From Aplysia californica (taxonomy: Eukaryota), in NCBI RefSeq assembly GCF_000002075.1, contig NW_004797634.1:534539-598538 (forward strand): DNA of 64,000 nt, in the 5' to 3' direction. A program made the position numbers and the translations under genes. Numbering within the stretch: position 1 is the stretch's first letter; every line of letters starts with the position of its first letter. Positions 1 through 41,000 of this stretch are shown one piece after another. A model generated the notes under the pieces. That model was not told the origin of the DNA and ran no database searches. It saw only the letters and a program-made list of their open reading frames with translations.

Positions 1-203
1 ACACACACACACACACACACATACACACACACAAACGCACACACAAACAAACAAAACATAACATGTACACACACCGAAAAAATAAACATTTTATTATAAC
101 TGTACTCTGGAGAGTATAGACACAGTTTTGCAGATTATAAAATTCACGTAATTAACAAATCATCTCTACTTTCCCATCAACAGCAATACATGTAGGAAGG
201 AGC

Positions 204-1655
204 ATGAACAAAGGAGCAGCTTTCCTATTTCAAGTATGTTCTGTTTGGGTTCTTCTGGCGATATTCGTCTCGAGCTTTCTCCTGATCCGCCCATTCAAAC
301 TCGATCGGTTTATGCCGCGGCAGAATCCCTCAAGACCTCGTAGCCTGATCGCCAAACACAAGACTCATTTTAACAACAGAACGAACAACGAACCTGTCGG
401 AAGATCGAGCACTAGCAACAATCTATCGCCTCAAGAACTGGAACAAATAATCACTCGGGCATTAATTTCCCAGAACGATGCAGGCAGTTCCGACTTCAGT
501 GCAGTCTCACCACCAGCAGATTCCGTCTCCGTCATCAACAACGGAAATGAGGTTAATGAGAAGCATCACGTGGTTTTTTCCAAAGTGCACAAGGCGGCAA
601 GCACAACTGTCCAAAACGTTTTCCTTCGGTTCGCAATATCCCACGACCTGAACGTGATGTTGGACCGTAGTGGGGAGCACATTAATGAGGGTGGATCTCT
701 CATTACCGAGAGCAACTTGTACCCTCTTCCTCTAGGCCACACCCACGATATCTTATGTAACCACCTCATATTCAACAGCACGGAAATATCGCGTTTCTTC
801 CCAAATGATACGGTTTATATTGGGATTTTGAGAAAACCTTTCGAGCAATTCCTGTCTACTTTCGTTTACTACGCTGGTGTTTTTAAGAAGCCACCCCTCT
901 CAAAACTTATTAAAAAGTTCCCCGAAAATCCAGTTGAATCTTTTCTGATAGATTCTGAGAGCTATGTTAATAAGGTAAATCCAGCCAAAGACTTTTTAAA
1001 CAATCGAATGAGTATGGACTTAGGTTTCCCGCTCAACAACTTTGAACTTGCCAAAGTGAACCAGTCTCTGATCCAACAATTTCTCGGTGACGTTCAGTCG
1101 ACATTTGACTTGATCCTCATAGCCGAACAGTTTGAGGAGTCGATGGTCTTGCTACGCCGCTTCCTTGGCTGGAGCACAAAGGACATCCTATATGTAAAAA
1201 GAAATGTGTTCACCTCGGAAGACGAAAGTCTCTCCCGAATTAAAAAAAGAAATTATTCCTCAGAGGTGATGCAACTCTTCTCATCATGGGCCGCAATTGA
1301 CATCGCTCTTTATGATCACTTTGTGGAATTTTTTAACGAGCGGATAAAAAAACAGCCGGGAAATTTTCATGAAGAAGTGATTCAATTCAAAGAGGTAAGG
1401 GAGCAAGTGGATACGTTTTGTTCGTTCGTCCGGTCAAGCCATCTTGTCTCTTCCTCTAAGTCTAAGTACTTCCCCTCCACAAACTTCACCACTGCCTTCA
1501 CCGTCACCTCTTACGACTGTATTTTGATGACTCTGGAAGAGATGGATTTTATGGCTGTAGCAAAATTTCTTCGCCAGATAAAACTCAACAAAGCAAGACG
1601 CCGTCAACATGGGGGAAAAAGAAAGATCCCACAATCCAACAAAGCAAAGACTTGA
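204..1655 (+). CDS. Galactose-3-O-sulfotransferase family (GAL3ST-like) type II Golgi membrane protein, single coding exon
   Basis: 483-aa ORF with an N-terminal TM segment, a Ser/Asn-rich stem, the 5'-PAPS-binding motif VVFSKVHKAASTT, then ILCNH, GILRKPFEQFLS, FDLILIAEQFEESMVLLRRFLGW and DIALYDHF, all typical of Gal-3-O-sulfotransferases. A splice acceptor (ttcccatcaacag) ends at 183, just upstream of the ATG. Confidence 0.9.
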   Translation: MNKGAAFLFQVCSVWVLLAIFVSSFLLIRPFKLDRFMPRQNPSRPRSLIAKHKTHFNNRTNNEPVGRSSTSNNLSPQELEQIITRALISQNDAGSSDFSAVSPPADSVSVINNGNEVNEKHHVVFSKVHKAASTTVQNVFLRFAISHDLNVMLDRSGEHINEGGSLITESNLYPLPLGHTHDILCNHLIFNSTEISRFFPNDTVYIGILRKPFEQFLSTFVYYAGVFKKPPLSKLIKKFPENPVESFLIDSESYVNKVNPAKDFLNNRMSMDLGFPLNNFELAKVNQSLIQQFLGDVQSTFDLILIAEQFEESMVLLRRFLGWSTKDILYVKRNVFTSEDESLSRIKKRNYSSEVMQLFSSWAAIDIALYDHFVEFFNERIKKQPGNFHEEVIQFKEVREQVDTFCSFVRSSHLVSSSKSKYFPSTNFTTAFTVTSYDCILMTLEEMDFMAVAKFLRQIKLNKARRRQHGGKRKIPQSNKAKT

Positions 1656-18700: not shown

Positions 18701-18928
18701 TAGAAAAAATAGAAAAATAGCGCAATCCTGTGGATTTCAGTTTACAAAAAAATCAGTCTCCATTATACTGGTAGCATGTGAAGACCATGTCCCCACATAA
18801 TAATTATCGAAATTGTTAGGGTGTTCGCTCCTTGCCCTTGCGAAAGTCCTTCCCATGGTAGACCAAGTTTCAAGTGATAGGGGGTGGGTGGTGAGTGGTG
18901 GTAGTTTTAAAGTAGTTTAGTAGAGGGG

Positions 18929-19710
18929 AAGTGGCTATTCTCATCCGGGGTGAGAATAGAAAAAAACGATCTACCTCTCACCCCAGGTGAGACTTGCCAG
19001 CGTAGGCTATTCTCACCCGGTGCGAAACAAGACCTGCTTTTCCTCATTTTGGAATACTGTCTATCGGTGTGGATGATCAAATTGATAAAAGCCAAGAAAA
19101 AATTACGTTATAGATCTAGCACAAAAGTAAGCTAATTTGATCGTCTTCAAAGATGCTATGGCTATTTCACTGTTCGAATCGAGCCGAACTACGCGGGTCG
19201 CCATTTTGTTTTGCCCGGAAGTTCTCGCAAGATCTACTCCTCCCCTCTCTCTCTCTCTGTCTCTTTCTGAATACTGTCTATCGGTGTGGACGATCAAATT
19301 GACCAAAACAAAGTTTAAAAATGATGTTAAAACAGAAAAGTAAATTAATTTGGTTGTCTACAAAAGATGCTACGGCCATTTAACTTTTCGAATCGAGCCG
19401 AACTACGCGGGTCGCCATTTTGTTTTGACCGAAAGTTCTCGCCCTACTCCTCTCTCTCTCTCTTTCTCTCTCTCTCTCCACTGCCCACAGACAAAATTGT
19501 ACGCTTTTAGTAGACAGTTGTAATGGAACGTTTGTTCACGGCACAGAATTCTACAATGTTTCTGTTATCACAGTGTAGAATTCTGTGGTTTAGGGTGAAC
19601 GCAAAATTTGTTGGCCTAGATCTAGGCTATAACGGTGAACGCGCACCGGGTGAGAATAGCCAAAAGACTAGCCTGCACTATTCTCACCCCGGGTGAGAAT
19701 AGAGGTTGCC
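18929..19710. mobile_element. Foldback/Mutator-like element with an internal tandem duplication
   Basis: Subterminal palindromes ctattctcaccc(c)gggtgagaatag, two ~220-bp internal units and a flanking 11-bp direct repeat TAGTAGAGGGG. Confidence 0.55.
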
Positions 19711-32000: not shown

Positions 32001-35000
32001 CATCGGCAAATAGCTATCTAAATCAAGAGATACAGAAAAACCTGAATATACTGGTACAAACTGTATTATCATAGGTGTCAACAGTAAGAACAAATAGTTT
32101 TCAAAAATCAGAATAAGAGAATTTCCAATCAAACGGAGAAGAGTGCAGCATGGACCTAGGTCATAATAGTCTGCACTTTTTTGGCACTAGGTTTTTACAG
32201 TAGGTTGATCTGGCTTCAACATGTCTGGTATCTAGTTCTCACTTTAGGGAGGTATTACTGGTAAGAATTTCAAGAGGAGAAATGAGACTATAAACAATAT
32301 TTTCAGTTCTCTTCTCTCCCCCATTGCAGTTCTTTTTTTTTCTCTCTTTACTAAATATAACACGACGTTAGCATCGGAACCAGATTTGTCATCATAGTAG
32401 ATTTCCACAGAAAAAAAAATAATACAGCACAATGGAAGTGACAAAGCTCTCTCTGTATATGACACCAAACACAGTATTGAATATTTCCCGTAGAACTTAC
32501 GTTCATTGAAGAATTTGTGTCTGCCACTGTTTCATCATCAGTAGGAAACTGGTAGATATGGACTCCATTTGATACAAGTTCAGACATCAGCTGTGGACAT
32601 TTCAATTCGTGAACTTCAGTTTATGATCACTGACCTCAACAAAATATGATCAGAAAGCATTCCTTATTTTGAATTATTTCAAAATTAAACAGCTATGTTC
32701 CTGAGTATGTGGATAAGATAAGATAAGATAGGATAAAACGAGATAAGAGATGAGATGGATGAGATAAGATATGATGAGATGAGATGAGACAAGATAAATC
32801 TTTATTGTCAAGATCCTGGCACATTGGTTTGGTGTTTCACCATGTACACACACACACACACACAGAGAAATACACACACACACACACACGGACGCACGTG
32901 TGTAAACATGCATTGGAGAGTAGATGTGTGTCAATAAAAGAAAGAGTATGCACAAATTTTAATATGCATGTGCGAGAGAGATAATATGTAACTTGATTTT
33001 TTTAAGTATCCCGAAACGGCCAAGCCAGGGTGGTTGAGAGACTAAAAAAGCTGGGAATCCAAGAGACAACATCTAAGCTTGCCTTTCATATAGGCCTACC
33101 TTGGTCTTGAATTTAGTGAGCTCTGTCTTGGTGATTGTGTCTGCTTTAGCAATGACCGGGATGATGTTCACTTTGGTGTCCAGTTTCTTCATAGTGACCA
33201 GATCCAAGGCCTTCAAGCTGAGGAAATTGTCAAACAGTTATTGCTAGAGTTTTTGTTTTAGTTTTAGTGAGAGTTTTATGGCACTTGCAACACAATAAAG
33301 TCATATAAGTGAGGAAGCTTAGAGGCGTTACAGTTACAGGAGAGTAACCAATACAAAAAAGAAGGAGGAAAGGACGATGTTTGACATGAAAGAAGAAGCA
33401 AACCACACCAGAACAGCAAGCACCCACCCACTGCTAGAGTTTATTAGGGTAGCAAGGAAGATGGCAAAAGAGCAAACGATAACCTTTATAAACAACTCGA
33501 ACGCGAAGGAGAAAAAATGGACAGCTTCGACTAAGAAGAGAAGAGGCTTGCAAAGAGAATATAAACTCTAAAGAGACCGTTTTTTAGAACCTGGAAACAT
33601 ACAAAAAAGGGCAGTTTTGAATTTTTTGTTTAATATAAATATTGACAACAACAAAATTTTTTTTGCTATAAAATGTCTATGGAATATCAAAGATAAACAC
33701 ACAAAATAAGCAGAAACAGCTCTCATAAAACAATCATGACAGGTTCGGGATGCACCTCCAACTTCATTGATGTCATCTATCGGTATTCAAAGTGTAAATG
33801 TTAAAGGTCAAGACAGCAATTTATTAAAACGGAAAACTGATTCAATATTTTTTCACACAATAGATAGTCTTTTCTTCAGACACCCCCCCCCCTTTCCGAG
33901 ACAAAACAGAAACAGTTCTCATAAAACAGCCACATCAAGTTGGAAATGCACCTTCATTGATGTCATGGCTACGAATGCTCAAAGAGAGGATTTTAAAGGT
34001 TAGGACAGCAATTACTTTAAACTAAAAGCTTATTCAATAATTGATTTTCAAACAACAGAATGCCTTTTCCTTTCTTTCTTTACTAAATTGATTTGAGAAA
34101 AATAATACACTAACCCGCCCCCCCCCCCCTTAAAAATTAGAAAACAAAACTAATTAAAACAACAACAAAACTCTATGGAAGCCATGAAGCATTCACACTA
34201 GAGACTGGGATGTTCACTTGAAGATGAACGAGAAGAAAGAAAAAAACTCATCCAACACTCTTCTATCAGTGACCTATTAAATTCACAGAAATTTTTTTCT
34301 TTGCCACAATGTTAAAAATGAAAGTAGAAATATACCACTCACGAATGGCCGGTGGGTGCAATGAAGTAAAGACAGGCATGAACACGCGTATCGTGGTAGG
34401 TGTGCAACATGCGTTTGATCTTCAGCTCCTCATGAAGATATGCGTCAAACTGAGCATCGATGTAGTCTACTATGGGCTTCCAGCTGAAACGAAATAAATG
34501 CAGTGTGTGAATGATTCACAGTACAGTGAAATTCGATTGATAAAGAACAATTATAATGAGGTAAAAGGTAAAACAATTTTCATAATATGTTTTCTTATAA
34601 ACCTTTTAAGACAATATTGACCAGATGGGGGAATCCCCATATTATTGTTGTCTTTTAATTTTGAATTTGTGTTCTTTTTTAACATCACCTTTTCCTCACT
34701 ATAAGCAAAGAATTTGGAATTTTCATGAAATTTACACTGCAAAGCATAAAGACAGGAAATAGAAATATAGGGCCTACTGTACAGAAAACTGGAGACAAAA
34801 TTTCTTCCCTGGAATAAATGTTTCTATTTTGAGAACTAAAAAAAAATAAATAAGTAAATTAGATTGTTTTTTTCTTTTCTTTAGACAATAAGAATGCTGC
34901 CAATGACTCGTTCAAAAATATCTTAGCGTGTGAAATGATGAATATGTAATGATAATGAGCAATAGTAAAATAGATTTTTATAAGAATTTCATAAACCTGA

Positions 35001-38000
35001 TACATGTATATTCAAAGTGAAACATATTGAACATCAAAATAGGAACAAGTAGTCTAATTCCCGTACGCCACTAACATCATTAGAGTTTAAAAAATAAACA
35101 GGAAGCGAAATGTATGGATGAAGAAGCTACAAACTAACAACACTCTTGACATAATGCTGGATACATGTAATATTTCAGGCATGCAATGTATTTTTAGGCT
35201 CAAAGTATATGCAAAACCCAAAACACCACATAAAGATCTACTGAACATCACAGAGGTAATCGTATTTCACAATATAAGGCCTAATCTATGGAGCATGCAT
35301 CAAATTACCATAGCAAACACATTTGACACAACTCAAACCCACTATTAAAGCCTCTAAAATAAAAGAAACTTTAAAAGACGGCTGTCTGCTCCAACACAAA
35401 CTCTCAGCACCCACTAAAAATATGACAGAGACCCAGCCTCATGTCTTCACTACTAGTATATCCCCATGCATACACCGTCAACAAGCAGGCATTCCCATAT
35501 ACACCTTCAAAAAGCAGTTTCATTTTGATAAAAGTCTATTCAAAGAAATAAAATTGACCAGTATGGATGGAACATAAGCCTCAACTTAGGCAGGTATTCC
35601 CCAGTTCATGTTCCAAAATTGGTGAAGAGCTCACAGCATAAAATATTACCTACAACAATAAGTGAGGAAAATAGGGAGCATGCAAAAGTGGTACATTTAT
35701 ATCTTTTCTATTCTGGACGGGGGGAGGGCAGTGGATGAGGTTATGTGTAAAGTTTTTGACAGTATGCAATCTGCAAAAGGATAAGTGTTTTCAAGAGCAA
35801 GTAGTCAGTTAAGCGAGTCAAAAGCTGCCGAGAAAAAGCAAAAAATTTGAAGAACAACCGTGAAAATCAGAAGCCAAGTGAAAACAATCAGAGTTAAGTG
35901 ACACGCGCTGCACTTTTCTCTCCCCCCCCCCCCCTCCATTCTTACACACCCTCACTATGATTCTGACCTTTTCTAACAAAATACTATTCATGCATTATGT
36001 TCAACAGGGAAAAAAAAAGTAAAATAAATCAGTCCAAGATTGAACATTACTAATTGAGATGACGCCCCTTATACGTTCAAAACAAGGTGACTTTCCTAAA
36101 ACTGACTGCAAAGCGGCCTTGTCAATTTCATAGAGTCACACACGCGAAGACATGGCGTTATGGTGAGTTTGCCACATCTGCAGTAAGCCAGGAAGCCAAG
36201 AGGTGCGAATGAAGCTAAAAGGATCTGGCTTGGAGCTTCATCCATTAGTTGTTTAATTTTAGATGCTATGACGAAAATCACAAACCTTGAAAGTCCAGTT
36301 GGACTGGTTTTACTGGAACAATAATAATAATTAAGCGATATGCTTTAAAGAGGCCTTATTTCTTCCCTTATTGACACTAGGGACTTGAAATGGCATGCAA
36401 TTTCCAACAATTAGATAATCATTTATTTGACCTAAACATTTCCAGACCAACAAGTCCCATTCTTTTCAAATTGCCACTTTGAACAGAGAAATCCTAAGCC
36501 TAATAACTCTCAAGACAGAAATATAATAGTCCATATTTTCGGGTCTTCGCTTATTTGTACCCAAAGGATTTGCAGGCAAATGGATTTTTTTTCAAAAGAG
36601 AACTAATATTTTGAGAGCTCGGAGTCCCAGGCTGTGCTTCAGTAAGAAGAAACGTCAAGTACAATAACGCAGAGAAAGTGCCCAGAATAAACGTGCATAC
36701 ATTTCACAAATATAAACTATATAGATGGAGTCATTTGTTACAGATATCATACAACTATTATGACACGGTTATTACACCGCTTGCAAGAGCACAGTTACTA
36801 CACTATTATAGTACAGTTACTAGTATTGCTATGGTCCAGTGACTACACAGCTATATAGTACAGTTACTAGTATTGCTATGGTACAGTGACTCGAATGTTA
36901 TAGTACAGTAGTTAGTTACCAGACTGTTATAGCACAGTTTCTACACTGCTATGATACAGTCACTAGTATAGCTATGGTACAGTTACTACACTATTATATG
37001 GCAGTTATCAGACTGTTATAGCACACTTTCTACACTGCTATGGTACAGTCACAAGTATTACTATAGTACAGTATATATACACACTTATTACTAGGCTATT
37101 ACAGTACAGTTACTACACGGTTATAATATAATAATGGTACAATTACTACACTCTTAAACGGTACAGTTATGAGGCAAGTCTTGCTGAGATACAGAACAGT
37201 TACTAGTATTGTTATGGTACAGTGACTACAGAGTTATAGTACAGTTCTACACTTTCATAGAATATTACTGCAACTATAATAATACAGTTATTATGTTGTT
37301 ATGGTACAGTTTCTACATCGGTATGGTTCAGTGGAAAGTTTACAACTTTCTAACTTCAGTGATACAGTGACTGCCCATGCAGTTGAATAAAAAGAGACAA
37401 GCCGTAGCAATAGAGCAGAACAGAAAAGGCTTTCCTTGTACATATATAGAAAATTATCAGTAATATTGTCAGTGGCATCAGAATGAAAAAGAATGTGCAA
37501 TTCTCGTATATCATATATATATATTTAAAAATAAGAACCCTTGCCAAAACACGTGTATACACCACACCCTATCAACTTCTAAACTACATAAACACAACGA
37601 CTGATAAAGAAAAGACAACAGAAAAAATTTACAGTTCGAGATATATAAGATAAATAAAATCAGCCAACCATACATAAACAAATAAAAATACTGAAAATAG
37701 AAGAAAAAGAAAAAAACAACAACCTCCATACAAAAGTACAACCCTGCAAGATACTGTCAGGCACTAAGGACTAGACATTTTCAAGCACCTCACTAAACTC
37801 TGAGGACTAACTTGAAGGGCTGCACGCAAAACACAAAAGGAATGCACTACATCCAAAAACTACCTTGACCTCACCTATCATCTTTGTTAATCTGATCCCC
37901 AAACCCTACAGAGTCCACCAGAGTCAGTTTTAAAAGCACATTCTTTTCACGAAGTTCTGAAAATGGGAAGAAGGCCAATGAGAAAGAAGTATGACGAGTC

Positions 38001-41000
38001 ATTAAAAAGTGGGTGATACCAGAACGTTTTGTGGGGAAAAAAAAGAATAAATCAGAGAAGTAAATGCAAGATCATAGTCTCCATCTTCATGGACTCATAC
38101 CTTTGAGGGTGTAATAATAAAAATGAGAAATTCTTTGCTTAAAGAATGAATACTACAATAATCAGGTCATGACACTAAGAGACCGCAATTATAACCTTTA
38201 CAGATTACCAACCCATATTAATTTCCTGGAAACTTCCTGCACTTATGTGCTAATCCATTACCCCTTCAGATTGGTTACAAGTTTTGACTGTGGGGGGTGG
38301 GGTTCTGTTCCTTTTTACGAAGCTAAGGGGTAATGGAGAACACGCACAAAAATATGCTCAAATTCTCAGAATACTTTCTCCCATCTCATAGTGCAAGGAG
38401 GTAAATTGTCCATGAAGACAGATCCTCTGATCTGACAGAGCCAGGTATTTCTCTGAAAGAAACTCCAAAGCAAAGTAAATTTCCTTACCTATGGTCCTTA
38501 TTGATCTGATCACCAAAACCAGTGCTGTCTACTATAGTTAATTTCAAGCGAACATTACTCTCATTCAGATCTGAAAATGGGCGTAGAACCACTCGATAAA
38601 GACGGGAAGATGGGAGGGGGAAGGTACAGCTGATGCAAAAAGATGTCACATACTAGAGATATTGATTTATTCTTGACAAATAGTATTCCACCCAATCGGT
38701 AGTCTTCCATCCTAAAATCTACGACATAATATATAAAACAAAAATGTACGTGTGCCTAAAGAAAGGTACAAAAAGTCGGATTTGACCGTTTTGAATTAAG
38801 GGTTGCACCTTTTATAGATAATTCAATGCTGAACACAGTGGGTTTTTTTAATTTTTGAGATATCTCAAGTAATTTTTTAGATGCTGTACATTTACGTACT
38901 GTAAAAAGATCTAATTTTGATAAAATTAGCTTTTAAGTTTAAGACACTTACTAACTTTAAAAAACCAATGATTCAAGTTTCCAATGGGGTTTTTTTCTTG
39001 GAAAATTCATTTCCAATTTGGCATTCAACAGACATCAATATCATGATCAGAATTTAATGATAAAACATGGCGAGGAAGAGAAAACCTGCTTCAAGAACAG
39101 ATTTGAACACTTTCTAAAACTAAAAGCAGTGTTCGTTGAATATCTTTAAAAAATACCTTAGTCTCAAAATTATTCAAAATAAAATATTTGGGAGTCAAAC
39201 CAATGAAAACCCTTTTAACACATTGTTAACAAATGGTGGAACTATCATTTTTTTATGAAAACACATTTTGGTCAAAAAAGTGATTTTTTGTCATCAGCCT
39301 GTAGCTCAAAATGGTCTGTGGCGACTTTTTGTACCTTTCTTTAGGCACACACACAAATATTGGAAAACAATGTTAACTTCATCACTAATAAATCAACTCT
39401 GGACCAAACTGCAAAAGGAAGTACAGTAGAGTCCGCGTCTACCGAGCACGTTTAAAAAACAAAAACGCAGCACTCTAAACCTAAAAAAATCTGGTAGTCC
39501 TGCAGATTTTGGTTTCAGCAGACTCCACTTATTTAACGTTACACAAAAGCAAAAATAACCGAGTAAGTTCTCATTGAGAATGTTCTACATCAGCTAAAAA
39601 CATCATCTACAACAAAATCAGAAAGCCATACATTCAAAGTGAAATATATTCCTATTGACCAGGTCAGAACATATAATGCCAGATTCAAAAGTTCAAAGTC
39701 AGAGTGGTAGACTTAAGACAGTAAATTAAAAAAACCCTGACAAGAAGTCGTTTGGGAGCACCTGTCAGAAACGTTTTACTTGATTTAAACTATTCAAGAG
39801 CAAGTAATTTTTAAATTTAAAAGAAGAGAAGCACTTTTAAAGTGATATTAGAAATATGGCACACTAAACAAGAGAAATGATTAGTAATGAATAAAATACA
39901 ATTACATCTATGTTAGTTCCTCGTGGAATATCTTGATTCCTCAACAACCTCATGGATGCAATTCACTAATGAGTCATGAAGTTCACAGAAAAAAACATGA
40001 TTTTTATGCAGCTCATTATTCTTTTGTAAGCAGTTGTCCAAATCTTCATAAATGAATCGAAAAAGTATCTGGGCCCCAAAAAGGTTGAAAAAAAAAAGTT
40101 CCCCACATCATATCATTTATACAAACAAAACAAGCATGGAATCATAATGTTCACCGTAAGTGTGGGCCTTGAGCTTCACTCCTGGCAGATCATGAGAACT
40201 CGGGGTGGAGTCGAAGTTTGTGTTGAATAGTGTGTCCATCATGGTTGACTTGCCAATGCCAGTCTCACCTTGAAAAGAAAGATTCTAGCTTTACAATATT
40301 CATTTGATTATGGATGCTGCAACACAATCAATCTTTCATGAGGTAGTTACGCATGTGCCAGCCACTCCAGTGTATACAATTTTTGTCTTGTGAAAGTAAT
40401 GATTAAGATGTGATGTACTATGAGCCAATAATTAATGCGCTTTTAAAACAGATCCAATAAGACCCTTAAATAAGATAAAATCAAAAGAGTACATTATTAT
40501 TCTAATCATGGACTTCAATTCTCAGAAGTTTTGCAGATAATTTCTTTAAACATTAATTTATATCTCTATGCTTAATTTTTCTTTCTCTTTTCAGATGTTT
40601 TCTTTTTGTTGCAATGCTTGACAAAAGTTAAACTATCATTAGAACTTTCCTAGAAATACAAAATACTTTTTTTTTTGTAAAATGATTTTTGTTCTGTAAT
40701 GTTTTTAAGAAATTATAATTGTTCGACAATCTGTTGTTTTTCTTTCTTGGAGAGATGTTTTGGAATTTGGAAGAAAACAATAGATATAACATGAAACATG
40801 ATGCTTTCCCACTCTGTTTTCCTGTTAAGTTTCATGGCCACATCATACTAGATAAACTTTACTTCAGTTTTCAAAGAAACCAAACAAGCTCTTGTTGTTT
40901 TAGCTCTACGGGTATCACAACTAGACAGATGATGTCAAAAATGAACTGAGCGCATTTGACAACTACAACAAGTTGTGACTCACCGACACACAGTATGTTG

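Follow-up and report, generated by a model that had tools for sequence, protein, structure and literature searches.

We found that exons 4a and 4b of a SEPT6-group septin gene in Aplysia californica form a true alternative exon pair, and that the intron between them carries long complementary arms. Based on folding predictions, we tentatively propose, with confidence just short of evenly balanced, that this intron may fold in two competing ways that help to decide which exon version is used. The exon pair exchanges the G3 motif and a switch II segment of the septin. The analysis covered one 64-kb stretch of genomic DNA (hereafter, the window), and the coordinates of the features are listed in Table 1.

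Table 1. Coordinates and main properties of the septin exons and the predicted RNA elements
Feature	Position	Strand	Remarks
Septin exon 4a	38489..38570	-	82 nt, AG..GT; codes for beta3, the G3 motif and the start of switch II
Septin exon 4b	37875..37956	-	82 nt, AG..GT
Exon 3, constitutive, upstream	40155..40268	-	
Exon 5, constitutive, downstream	34343..34483	-	
Intron between 4a and 4b	37957..38488	-	532 nt, GT..AG
Inner 13-bp stem, 5' arm	38325..38337	-	Pairs with 38266-38254; sole helix predicted whatever the context
Inner 13-bp stem, 3' arm	38254..38266	-	
Outer imperfect inverted repeat, 5' arm	38399..38456	-	Helices of 8+6+15+5 bp; pairing probability context-dependent
Outer inverted repeat, 3' arm	38052..38102	-	Ends at candidate distant branch A 38052
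Element X	38387..38399	-	Can pair with the 4a donor (12 bp with one bulge) and with element Y
Exon 4a donor (-5 to +7)	38482..38493	-	Predicted partner of X
Element Y	38233..38247	-	Arm of the originally predicted middle stem; 4a-donor look-alike, rival for X
AG-free zone upstream of exon 4b	37957..38078	-	122 nt; branch candidates include -96, -46 and -23

The two exons are tandem duplicates: they are adjacent, homologous (53 of 82 nucleotides identical) and equal in length and phase, and each has its own splice sites. The translation of exon 4a was identical to Aplysia septin-11 isoform X2 (P0010) at 26 of 26 residues, and that of exon 4b was identical to isoform X1 (P0011), also at 26/26. 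Furthermore, exons 3, 4b and 5 were joined in one transcript contig, and two versions of the exon were found in 11 gastropod species. Thus, each exon occurs alone between the same flanking exons, and the original prediction was right to treat 4a and 4b as alternatives. The basis for the 4a junction in Aplysia is the database isoform; no such junction occurred among four runs, of which three were raw RNA runs without depth on the septin exons and thus uninformative about isoform use. In addition, none of 94 proteins contained two exact G[FY]GDQI motifs, a count that leaves variant motifs aside. Separately, one model from Biomphalaria (P0016) has a portion of 4a fused to 4b.

The exon pair is present in limpets, abalones, periwinkles, sea hares and pulmonates. 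Among the fetched proteins, each of four oyster species had a single version, and no species outside the gastropods had two. The best solved-structure matches were Septin-6, CiSeptin-6, Septin-11 and Septin-8. The Aplysia gene therefore shares its protein family with the SEPT6/8/10/11/14-group septins (Pfam PF00735); however, paired exon versions occurred, among the fetched proteins, in gastropods alone. Literature searches returned no description of this exon pair in titles or abstract openings, and the isoforms are already in public annotations. The excerpted texts of PMC8640212 and 10.1101/2020.07.08.161463 assign the G3/switch II segment to gamma-phosphate binding and the septin G-interface. 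The G3 glycine or aspartate is altered in the 4a version of several species, so isoform choice could change nucleotide handling or partner binding.

Because both exons are 82 nt long, joining 4a to 4b shifts the reading frame, and decay could by itself keep the two exons exclusive with no need for structure. One rival explanation starts from this point, and we consider it a real possibility but lean against it. It holds that the stems are incidental, that exclusivity results from the frame shift and the decay of 4a+4b messages, and that proteins acting on the pyrimidine-rich acceptor regions make the choice. In the excerpts of PMC5740500, 377 of 629 human clusters have a length that is no multiple of three, which fits this explanation. 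However, joining reads were reported there in only 83 of these 377 clusters, and further mechanisms were argued. The predicted structures of Drosophila Rdl exon 3 proved dispensable according to the excerpted PMC13762713, and this again favors incidental stems.

All five arm pairs described by the original prediction are present in the intron. The 13-bp stem is perfect, and so is the 11-bp pair (38084-38094/38408-38418), which extends to 15 bp with G.U pairs on the transcribed (-) strand (38422-38408/38094-38080). The outer pair (38052-38062/38446-38456) matches at 10 of 11 positions. The middle pair (about 38233-38247/38387-38400) had been called near-perfect and does exist, but it carries one bulge and one mismatch. 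Similarly, the side stem (38107-38115/38204-38214) is present, though it requires a 2-nt bulge and consists of 4+5 bp. The chance figure of 0.002 given for 13-bp pairs was too low, since 25 of 5000 dinucleotide shuffles (0.005) contained a stem of at least 13 bp. Both the 13-bp and the 11-bp stem were present in 1 of 5000 shuffles. Thus, the complementarity is beyond chance against shuffles, and it is weaker against real sequence: equal 13+11 stems were found in 11 of 227 overlapping 532-nt segments of the window, and two helices of -26 kcal/mol or below in 12 of 226. By position, these 12 segments are mostly in repeats, although they were only partly checked individually. No Rfam family matched at its gathering score; the only hit, U1, is attributed to chance (13.5 bits against a cut-off of 69.5, E 0.94). 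The only variant seen, at 38063 (one contig, depth 5), falls between helices and carries no weight.

The five helices are mutually compatible, as had been claimed, with a predicted energy of -121.7 kcal/mol when forced together and a free minimum of -124.4. Forcing them worsens the ensemble by 6 kcal/mol (-131.1 vs -137.2). The whole intron did not stand out from shuffled controls (z = -0.54), and 31 of 100 shuffles folded equally well. With ends chosen by hand, the core (38050-38460) reached a z of about -2.9; in a sliding scan along the gene, its z was -2.2 and it ranked 9 of 77. These ordinary statistics are consistent with incidental stems. Over four region choices and two temperatures, pairing probability was 0.84-0.93 for the 13-bp stem, 0.0-1.0 for the 15-bp stem, 0.0-0.54 for the outer helix, and at most 0.21 for each of the middle and side helices. 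Thus, the predictions are not dominated by one multibranch fold with all five helices, and the case for that fold is weak.

The 5' arm of the middle stem, named element X here, also shows complementarity to the donor of exon 4a, which the original prediction had overlooked. Element X lies 89-101 nt inside the intron. The predicted energy of the X:donor duplex was -15.8 kcal/mol; in a set of 1000 shuffles none equalled this strength, and in a set of 500 a single shuffle did. When the two partners were compared, X:donor gave -14.7 kcal/mol and X:Y -13.5; X can thus pair with either partner at similar energy, the balance varying with the region ends. The X:donor pairing was noticed post hoc and was one of six splice-signal windows tested, of which the remaining five gave 27-318 of 500. 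Four other donors of the septin gene were ordinary (150-517 of 1000 shuffles). The window contains 40 GGTRAG sites, of which 6 scored at most 1 in 200 shuffles, and the five besides the 4a donor were clustered at 18.9-19.7 kb. The last residues of exon 4a vary among gastropods, so the exonic half of the duplex has no obvious conservation. If the stems are incidental, there is no explanation for the presence, within 532 nt of intron, of two strong helices and an element complementary to the donor.

The X:donor pairing and the outer helix compete and cannot nest. For the region 37800-38650, the predicted probability of the fold with the outer helix (fold A) was 0.98 at 37 C, and that of the fold with X on the donor (fold B) was 0.77 at 20 C, the latter in this one region choice. 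For the region 37860-38650, fold A had an advantage of 3-5 kcal/mol at each of the four temperatures; the balance thus flips with the choice of region ends. Even in fold A the 4a donor was mostly paired (unpaired 0.19-0.24).

We consider a role of the fold in exon choice plausible on these models. In fold A, the outer inverted repeat would close round the 13-bp stem and keep X from the 4a donor. The intron would be cut from 532 nt to an effective 127-167 nt, and the candidate distant branch point of 4b would come to the helix base, at 32-72 nt from the donor of 4a. Such an arrangement would favor 4a and hinder the joining of 4a to 4b. In fold B, X would cover the 4a donor, so that 4a would be silenced and the 4b branch region released. 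Any double inclusion would presumably be removed by nonsense-mediated decay. A more specific version, which we think unlikely, is an RNA switch in an expanded intron: X would flip between the 4a donor and the internal look-alike, the long helix would restore the ancestral length, and the setting of the septin G3/switch II segment would possibly shift with temperature. If true, this would be structure-driven exon choice in a mollusc, tuning the septin G-interface.

The AG-free zone upstream of 4b counts in favor of this proposal. Zones of at least 110 nt were found at 4 of 164 acceptor-like sites, but constitutive exon 5 of the same gene also has a 110-nt zone. In linear sequence, 428-510 nt separate the branch candidates in the zone from the 4a donor, outside the distance of about 50 nt at which a branch point would be hindered by the upstream donor; a distance of 32-72 nt is reached only with the outer helix formed. 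The candidates at -46 and -23 are closer to 4b and would escape such hindrance. U12/U2 incompatibility was ruled out by the donors of exon 3 (GTGAAC), 4a (GTAAGG) and 4b (GTGAGG), compared with the U12 consensus.

Apparently short introns in two more distant snails lend indirect support to the compaction idea. Read-through ORF P0095 implies a 4a-4b intron of 96 nt, its shifted 4a fitting 20 of 21 positions (null maximum 13 in 300 shuffles), and P0138 implies one of 166 nt (fit 24/26). These lengths are near that of the folded Aplysia intron, although read-through ORFs are biased toward short introns. A third ORF, P0096, has at least 142 nt ahead of 4b and no trace of 4a. A metagenome scan found no genomic copy of exon 4b; of 31 protein-scan loci, 6 were inspected and lacked a 4a-4b intron, and the remaining 25 were continuous coding matches. 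Introns of 96 and 166 nt are too short for the Aplysia arms, so the fold is not a gastropod-wide mechanism, and the existence of the pair with such introns again suits incidental stems. The fold may instead have been added in this lineage to an older arrangement with a short intron.

The same lengths bear on another explanation, which we judge quite improbable: the 405 nt between 38456 and 38052 could be a decayed insertion of fold-back or MITE-like type. The ancestral intron would have measured about 127 nt and tolerated the insert because the latter folds shut on itself. The original prediction described the arms as asymmetric, unlike a MITE. This is right for the inner stems, which sit off-centre in the 405 nt, but the four outer helices fall close to one diagonal and together make up one imperfect terminal inverted repeat (39 of 58 aligned columns). 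Removing the insertion would leave 127 nt, between the two snail lengths. However, the window contains no second copy (best match 28 nt at 82%), and no target-site duplication was seen by eye. In addition, reads and contigs of four runs at 90% likeness piled up at repeats about 33.25-33.4 kb and 38.8-39.5 kb, with none on the intron. If the fold matters, this intron is a short, easily tested case of structure offsetting intron growth, with natural short-intron controls.

Dscam1 exons 17.1/17.2 reportedly combine steric hindrance with RNA structure (attributed to Yue et al. 2013). The Aplysia pair is likewise a two-exon cluster whose intron fold is proposed to act with the donor-to-branch-point distance. 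However, the Aplysia case is built from sequence and prediction with a candidate branch point, and it adds a predicted donor-masking pair.

In human ATE1 exons 7a/7b, a precedent for the proposal, R1 and R4 compete for R3 (PMC7797038, as excerpted), and both cases have one intronic element with two competing partners beside a duplicated exon pair. However, according to the same excerpts, the ATE1 pairings mask 3' splice sites, are conserved and were proven by compensatory mutants, whereas the notable Aplysia pair is predicted to mask a 5' splice site. An ATE1-like pairing of the purine-rich 38388-38372 with either acceptor was at chance level in Aplysia (238-318 of 500 shuffles) and was therefore rejected.

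In vertebrate OGDH exons 4a/4b, another precedent, the excerpted PMC7969005 describes distant branch points whose linear distance from the donor is 25-41 nt. Both genes have a long AG-free zone upstream of the downstream exon, but the best distant Aplysia candidate is 437 nt from the donor and would be near only if folded. Docking-site and selector clusters are known from Dscam1 exons 4/6/9, 14-3-3zeta, Mhc and srp (excerpts of PMC6071210, PMC4691838 and PMC6027157). The Aplysia arms are 13-15 nt long and span hundreds of nt, within the range tabulated there, and X likewise has two similar partners. However, docking sites in those excerpts lie outside the cluster with one selector per exon, whereas every strong arm found in Aplysia is within the intervening intron, and the donor itself serves as one partner. 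With slightly more doubt than confidence, we suggest that the fold matters.

The minus-strand septin gene belongs to the SEPT6/8/11 group (Pfam Septin), and its best solved match was human Septin-6. Exon positions were obtained using tblastn with the isoform X1 protein (P0011) and a spliced contig. Exons 4a and 4b, two alternative versions of one exon, shared 53 of 82 nucleotides, and their peptides matched Aplysia californica septin-11 isoforms X2 and X1, respectively, at 26 of 26 residues each. One contig (run X20) joined exons 2-3-4b-5-6 with zero differences and skipped 4a; the septin exons received no coverage from the three raw RNA runs. As 82 is not divisible by three, a frameshift results when both exons are included and also when both are skipped. 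In addition, 4a and 4b have an identical acceptor end, and P0145, a read-through ORF of another snail, has near-identical end residues ahead of 4a, which suggests that the acceptor is conserved. Some gastropod transcripts (L001 near 457-600; database proteins P0022 and P0023) carry an extra 6-7 residues between exons 4 and 5. These residues are probably a micro-exon, and a simple scan found no match for it in the Aplysia intron.

Features of the septin exon pair, its intron and other parts of the window
Feature	Position	Strand	Remark
Exon 4a	38570-38489	-	82 nt
Exon 4b	37956-37875	-	82 nt
4a acceptor end	38571-38581	-	last 11 nt, same as 4b
4b acceptor end	37957-37967	-	last 11 nt, same as 4a
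Element X	38399-38387
Element Y	38247-38233		donor-like
Dispersed repeat	38740-39530		closely upstream of 4a; many contigs/reads at 90-95% likeness
Degenerate minisatellite	36791-37300		22-23-nt unit; intron after 4b
Motif cluster	18891-19693	both	similar short motifs, strongly self-complementary; adjoins 214-nt tandem duplication
Likely first coding exon	52351-52587	+	head to head with septin gene
Single long ORF	156-1652	+	galactose-3-O-sulfotransferase domain

The head-to-head exon had no Pfam match, and from its likeness we take it to be likely part of a neurobeachin-type gene. Meanwhile, the Plakobranchus septin P0007 carries the label neurobeachin, which hints that Plakobranchus shares this neighbourhood.

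Two versions between the same flanks were found in 11 gastropod species (Aplysia, Biomphalaria, Physella, Bradybaena, Littorina, Babylonia, three Haliotis, and two Patella); those of Patella could not be assigned neatly to 4a and 4b. Oysters had one version per species (13 sequences from four species); nine scallop-cluster members lay outside this comparison. The simplest reading of these sequences would place the duplication at the base of gastropods. The swapped segment carries the G3 motif together with the first part of switch II. PMC8640212 deals with the roles of both in septins. D-x-x-G was kept in every 4b version among the matches listed. In 4a, the G3 Gly is changed to Ala in Biomphalaria, Bulinus, Physella, Elysia crispata, and Haliotis rufescens, and the Asp to Asn in Bradybaena (proteins tied to G3 changes: P0012, P0015, P0005, P0097, and P0001). 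Ala also occurs in the single exon version of the bivalve Solemya, and thus Gly to Ala is not unique to 4a.

Intron lengths in other snails are implied by ORFs called straight through introns, not by intron DNA. ORF P0095 starts with 4a shifted from its frame by one base (20 of 21 positions fit; maximum of 13 in 300 shuffles) and continues into 4b, implying a 96-nt intron. ORF P0138 has 4a in the other shifted frame (24 of 26 positions) and then 4b, implying a 166-nt intron; it was the only such case among 70 ORFs screened, a set that did not include P0095. P0096 has at least 142 nt ahead of 4b, with no trace of 4a. This sample is biased, since only short introns free of stops can yield ORFs of this kind; even so, the exon pair occurs together with introns that could not accommodate the Aplysia arms. 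With the outer helix closed, 167 or 127 nt of the Aplysia intron remain.

Every one of the five arm pairs in the original prediction was present. A perfect stem of at least 13 bp occurred in 25 of 5000 shuffles, and the 13-bp and 11-bp stems jointly in one. In the real DNA of the window such stems were more frequent than in the shuffles, with the first in 18 and the combination in 11 of 227 sub-windows. The stacking energies were -26.6 for the 15-bp helix and -26.2 for the 13-bp helix, and two such helices were found in 12 of 226 real windows. It is quite possible that the stems are incidental. Furthermore, in the proposed check against shuffled controls, the entire intron folded no better than its own shuffles (z = -0.54). 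The core with chosen ends gave z near -3 (reached by 0 of 40 shuffles); an unbiased sliding scan gave -2.2, 9th of 77 windows, 10 of which were at -2 or below. Only the 13-bp stem was stable in all contexts. The five-helix multibranch fold is possible, but it costs 6 kcal/mol relative to the free ensemble, and its middle and side stems reached pairing probabilities of at most 0.21.

Together, the outer helices amount to a single, imperfect inverted repeat, and therefore the stems could be the relic of a decayed fold-back element. However, there was no second copy of the intron within the 64-kb window and no repeat pile-up on it in four runs, and we consider such an origin unlikely. In view of the outer helices, the predicted dissimilarity to a MITE holds only in part.

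Element X, overlooked in the original prediction, is complementary to the 4a donor (12 bp, one bulge, -15.8 kcal/mol). This pair was found post hoc; its strength was matched by none of 1000 shuffled versions of the following 300 nt and by 1 of 500 of the intron core, and five other splice-signal windows gave 27-318 of 500. Four other donors of the gene gave 150-517 of 1000. The window contains 40 GGTRAG sites; six of these were at 1 of 200 shuffles or fewer, namely the 4a donor and five clustered at 18.9-19.7 kb, where the motif cluster is probably a repeat element. X:Y pairing is close in energy to X:donor, and X:donor and the outer helix cannot nest. When region 37800-38650 was folded in the model, the outer helix had a probability of 0.98 at 37 C, and X:donor had one of 0.77 at 20 C; with region 37860-38650, the outer helix led by 3-5 kcal/mol at every temperature. 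The preferred state changes with the region, so the two states are within model error.

At the 4b acceptor, the AG-free zone extends over 122 nt; zones of at least 110 nt occurred at 4 of 164 acceptor-like sites, and exon 5 also has 110. A candidate 4b branch point at -96 lies at the base of the outer helix, and further candidates are at -46 and -23.

We tentatively favour a lineage-specific two-state fold superimposed on an older short-intron exon pair, in which decay would back up fold-based exon choice. Linear steric hindrance does not apply to the septin pair, and we do not regard the pair as an established member of the RNA-structure-controlled class. The literature search, with most subscription journals outside its coverage, showed no septin exon pair in titles or abstract openings and, among the best 15 of 33 matches, no molluscan RNA-pairing case. 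The comparison literature comprised PMC5740500, PMC11802352, PMC13762713, PMC6071210, PMC7969005, PMC6027157, PMC7797038, PMC4691838, PMC8640212, and 10.1101/2020.07.08.161463. The favoured two-state mechanism would act similarly to that of Dscam exon 17. By PMC7797038, it would also act similarly to that of ATE1.
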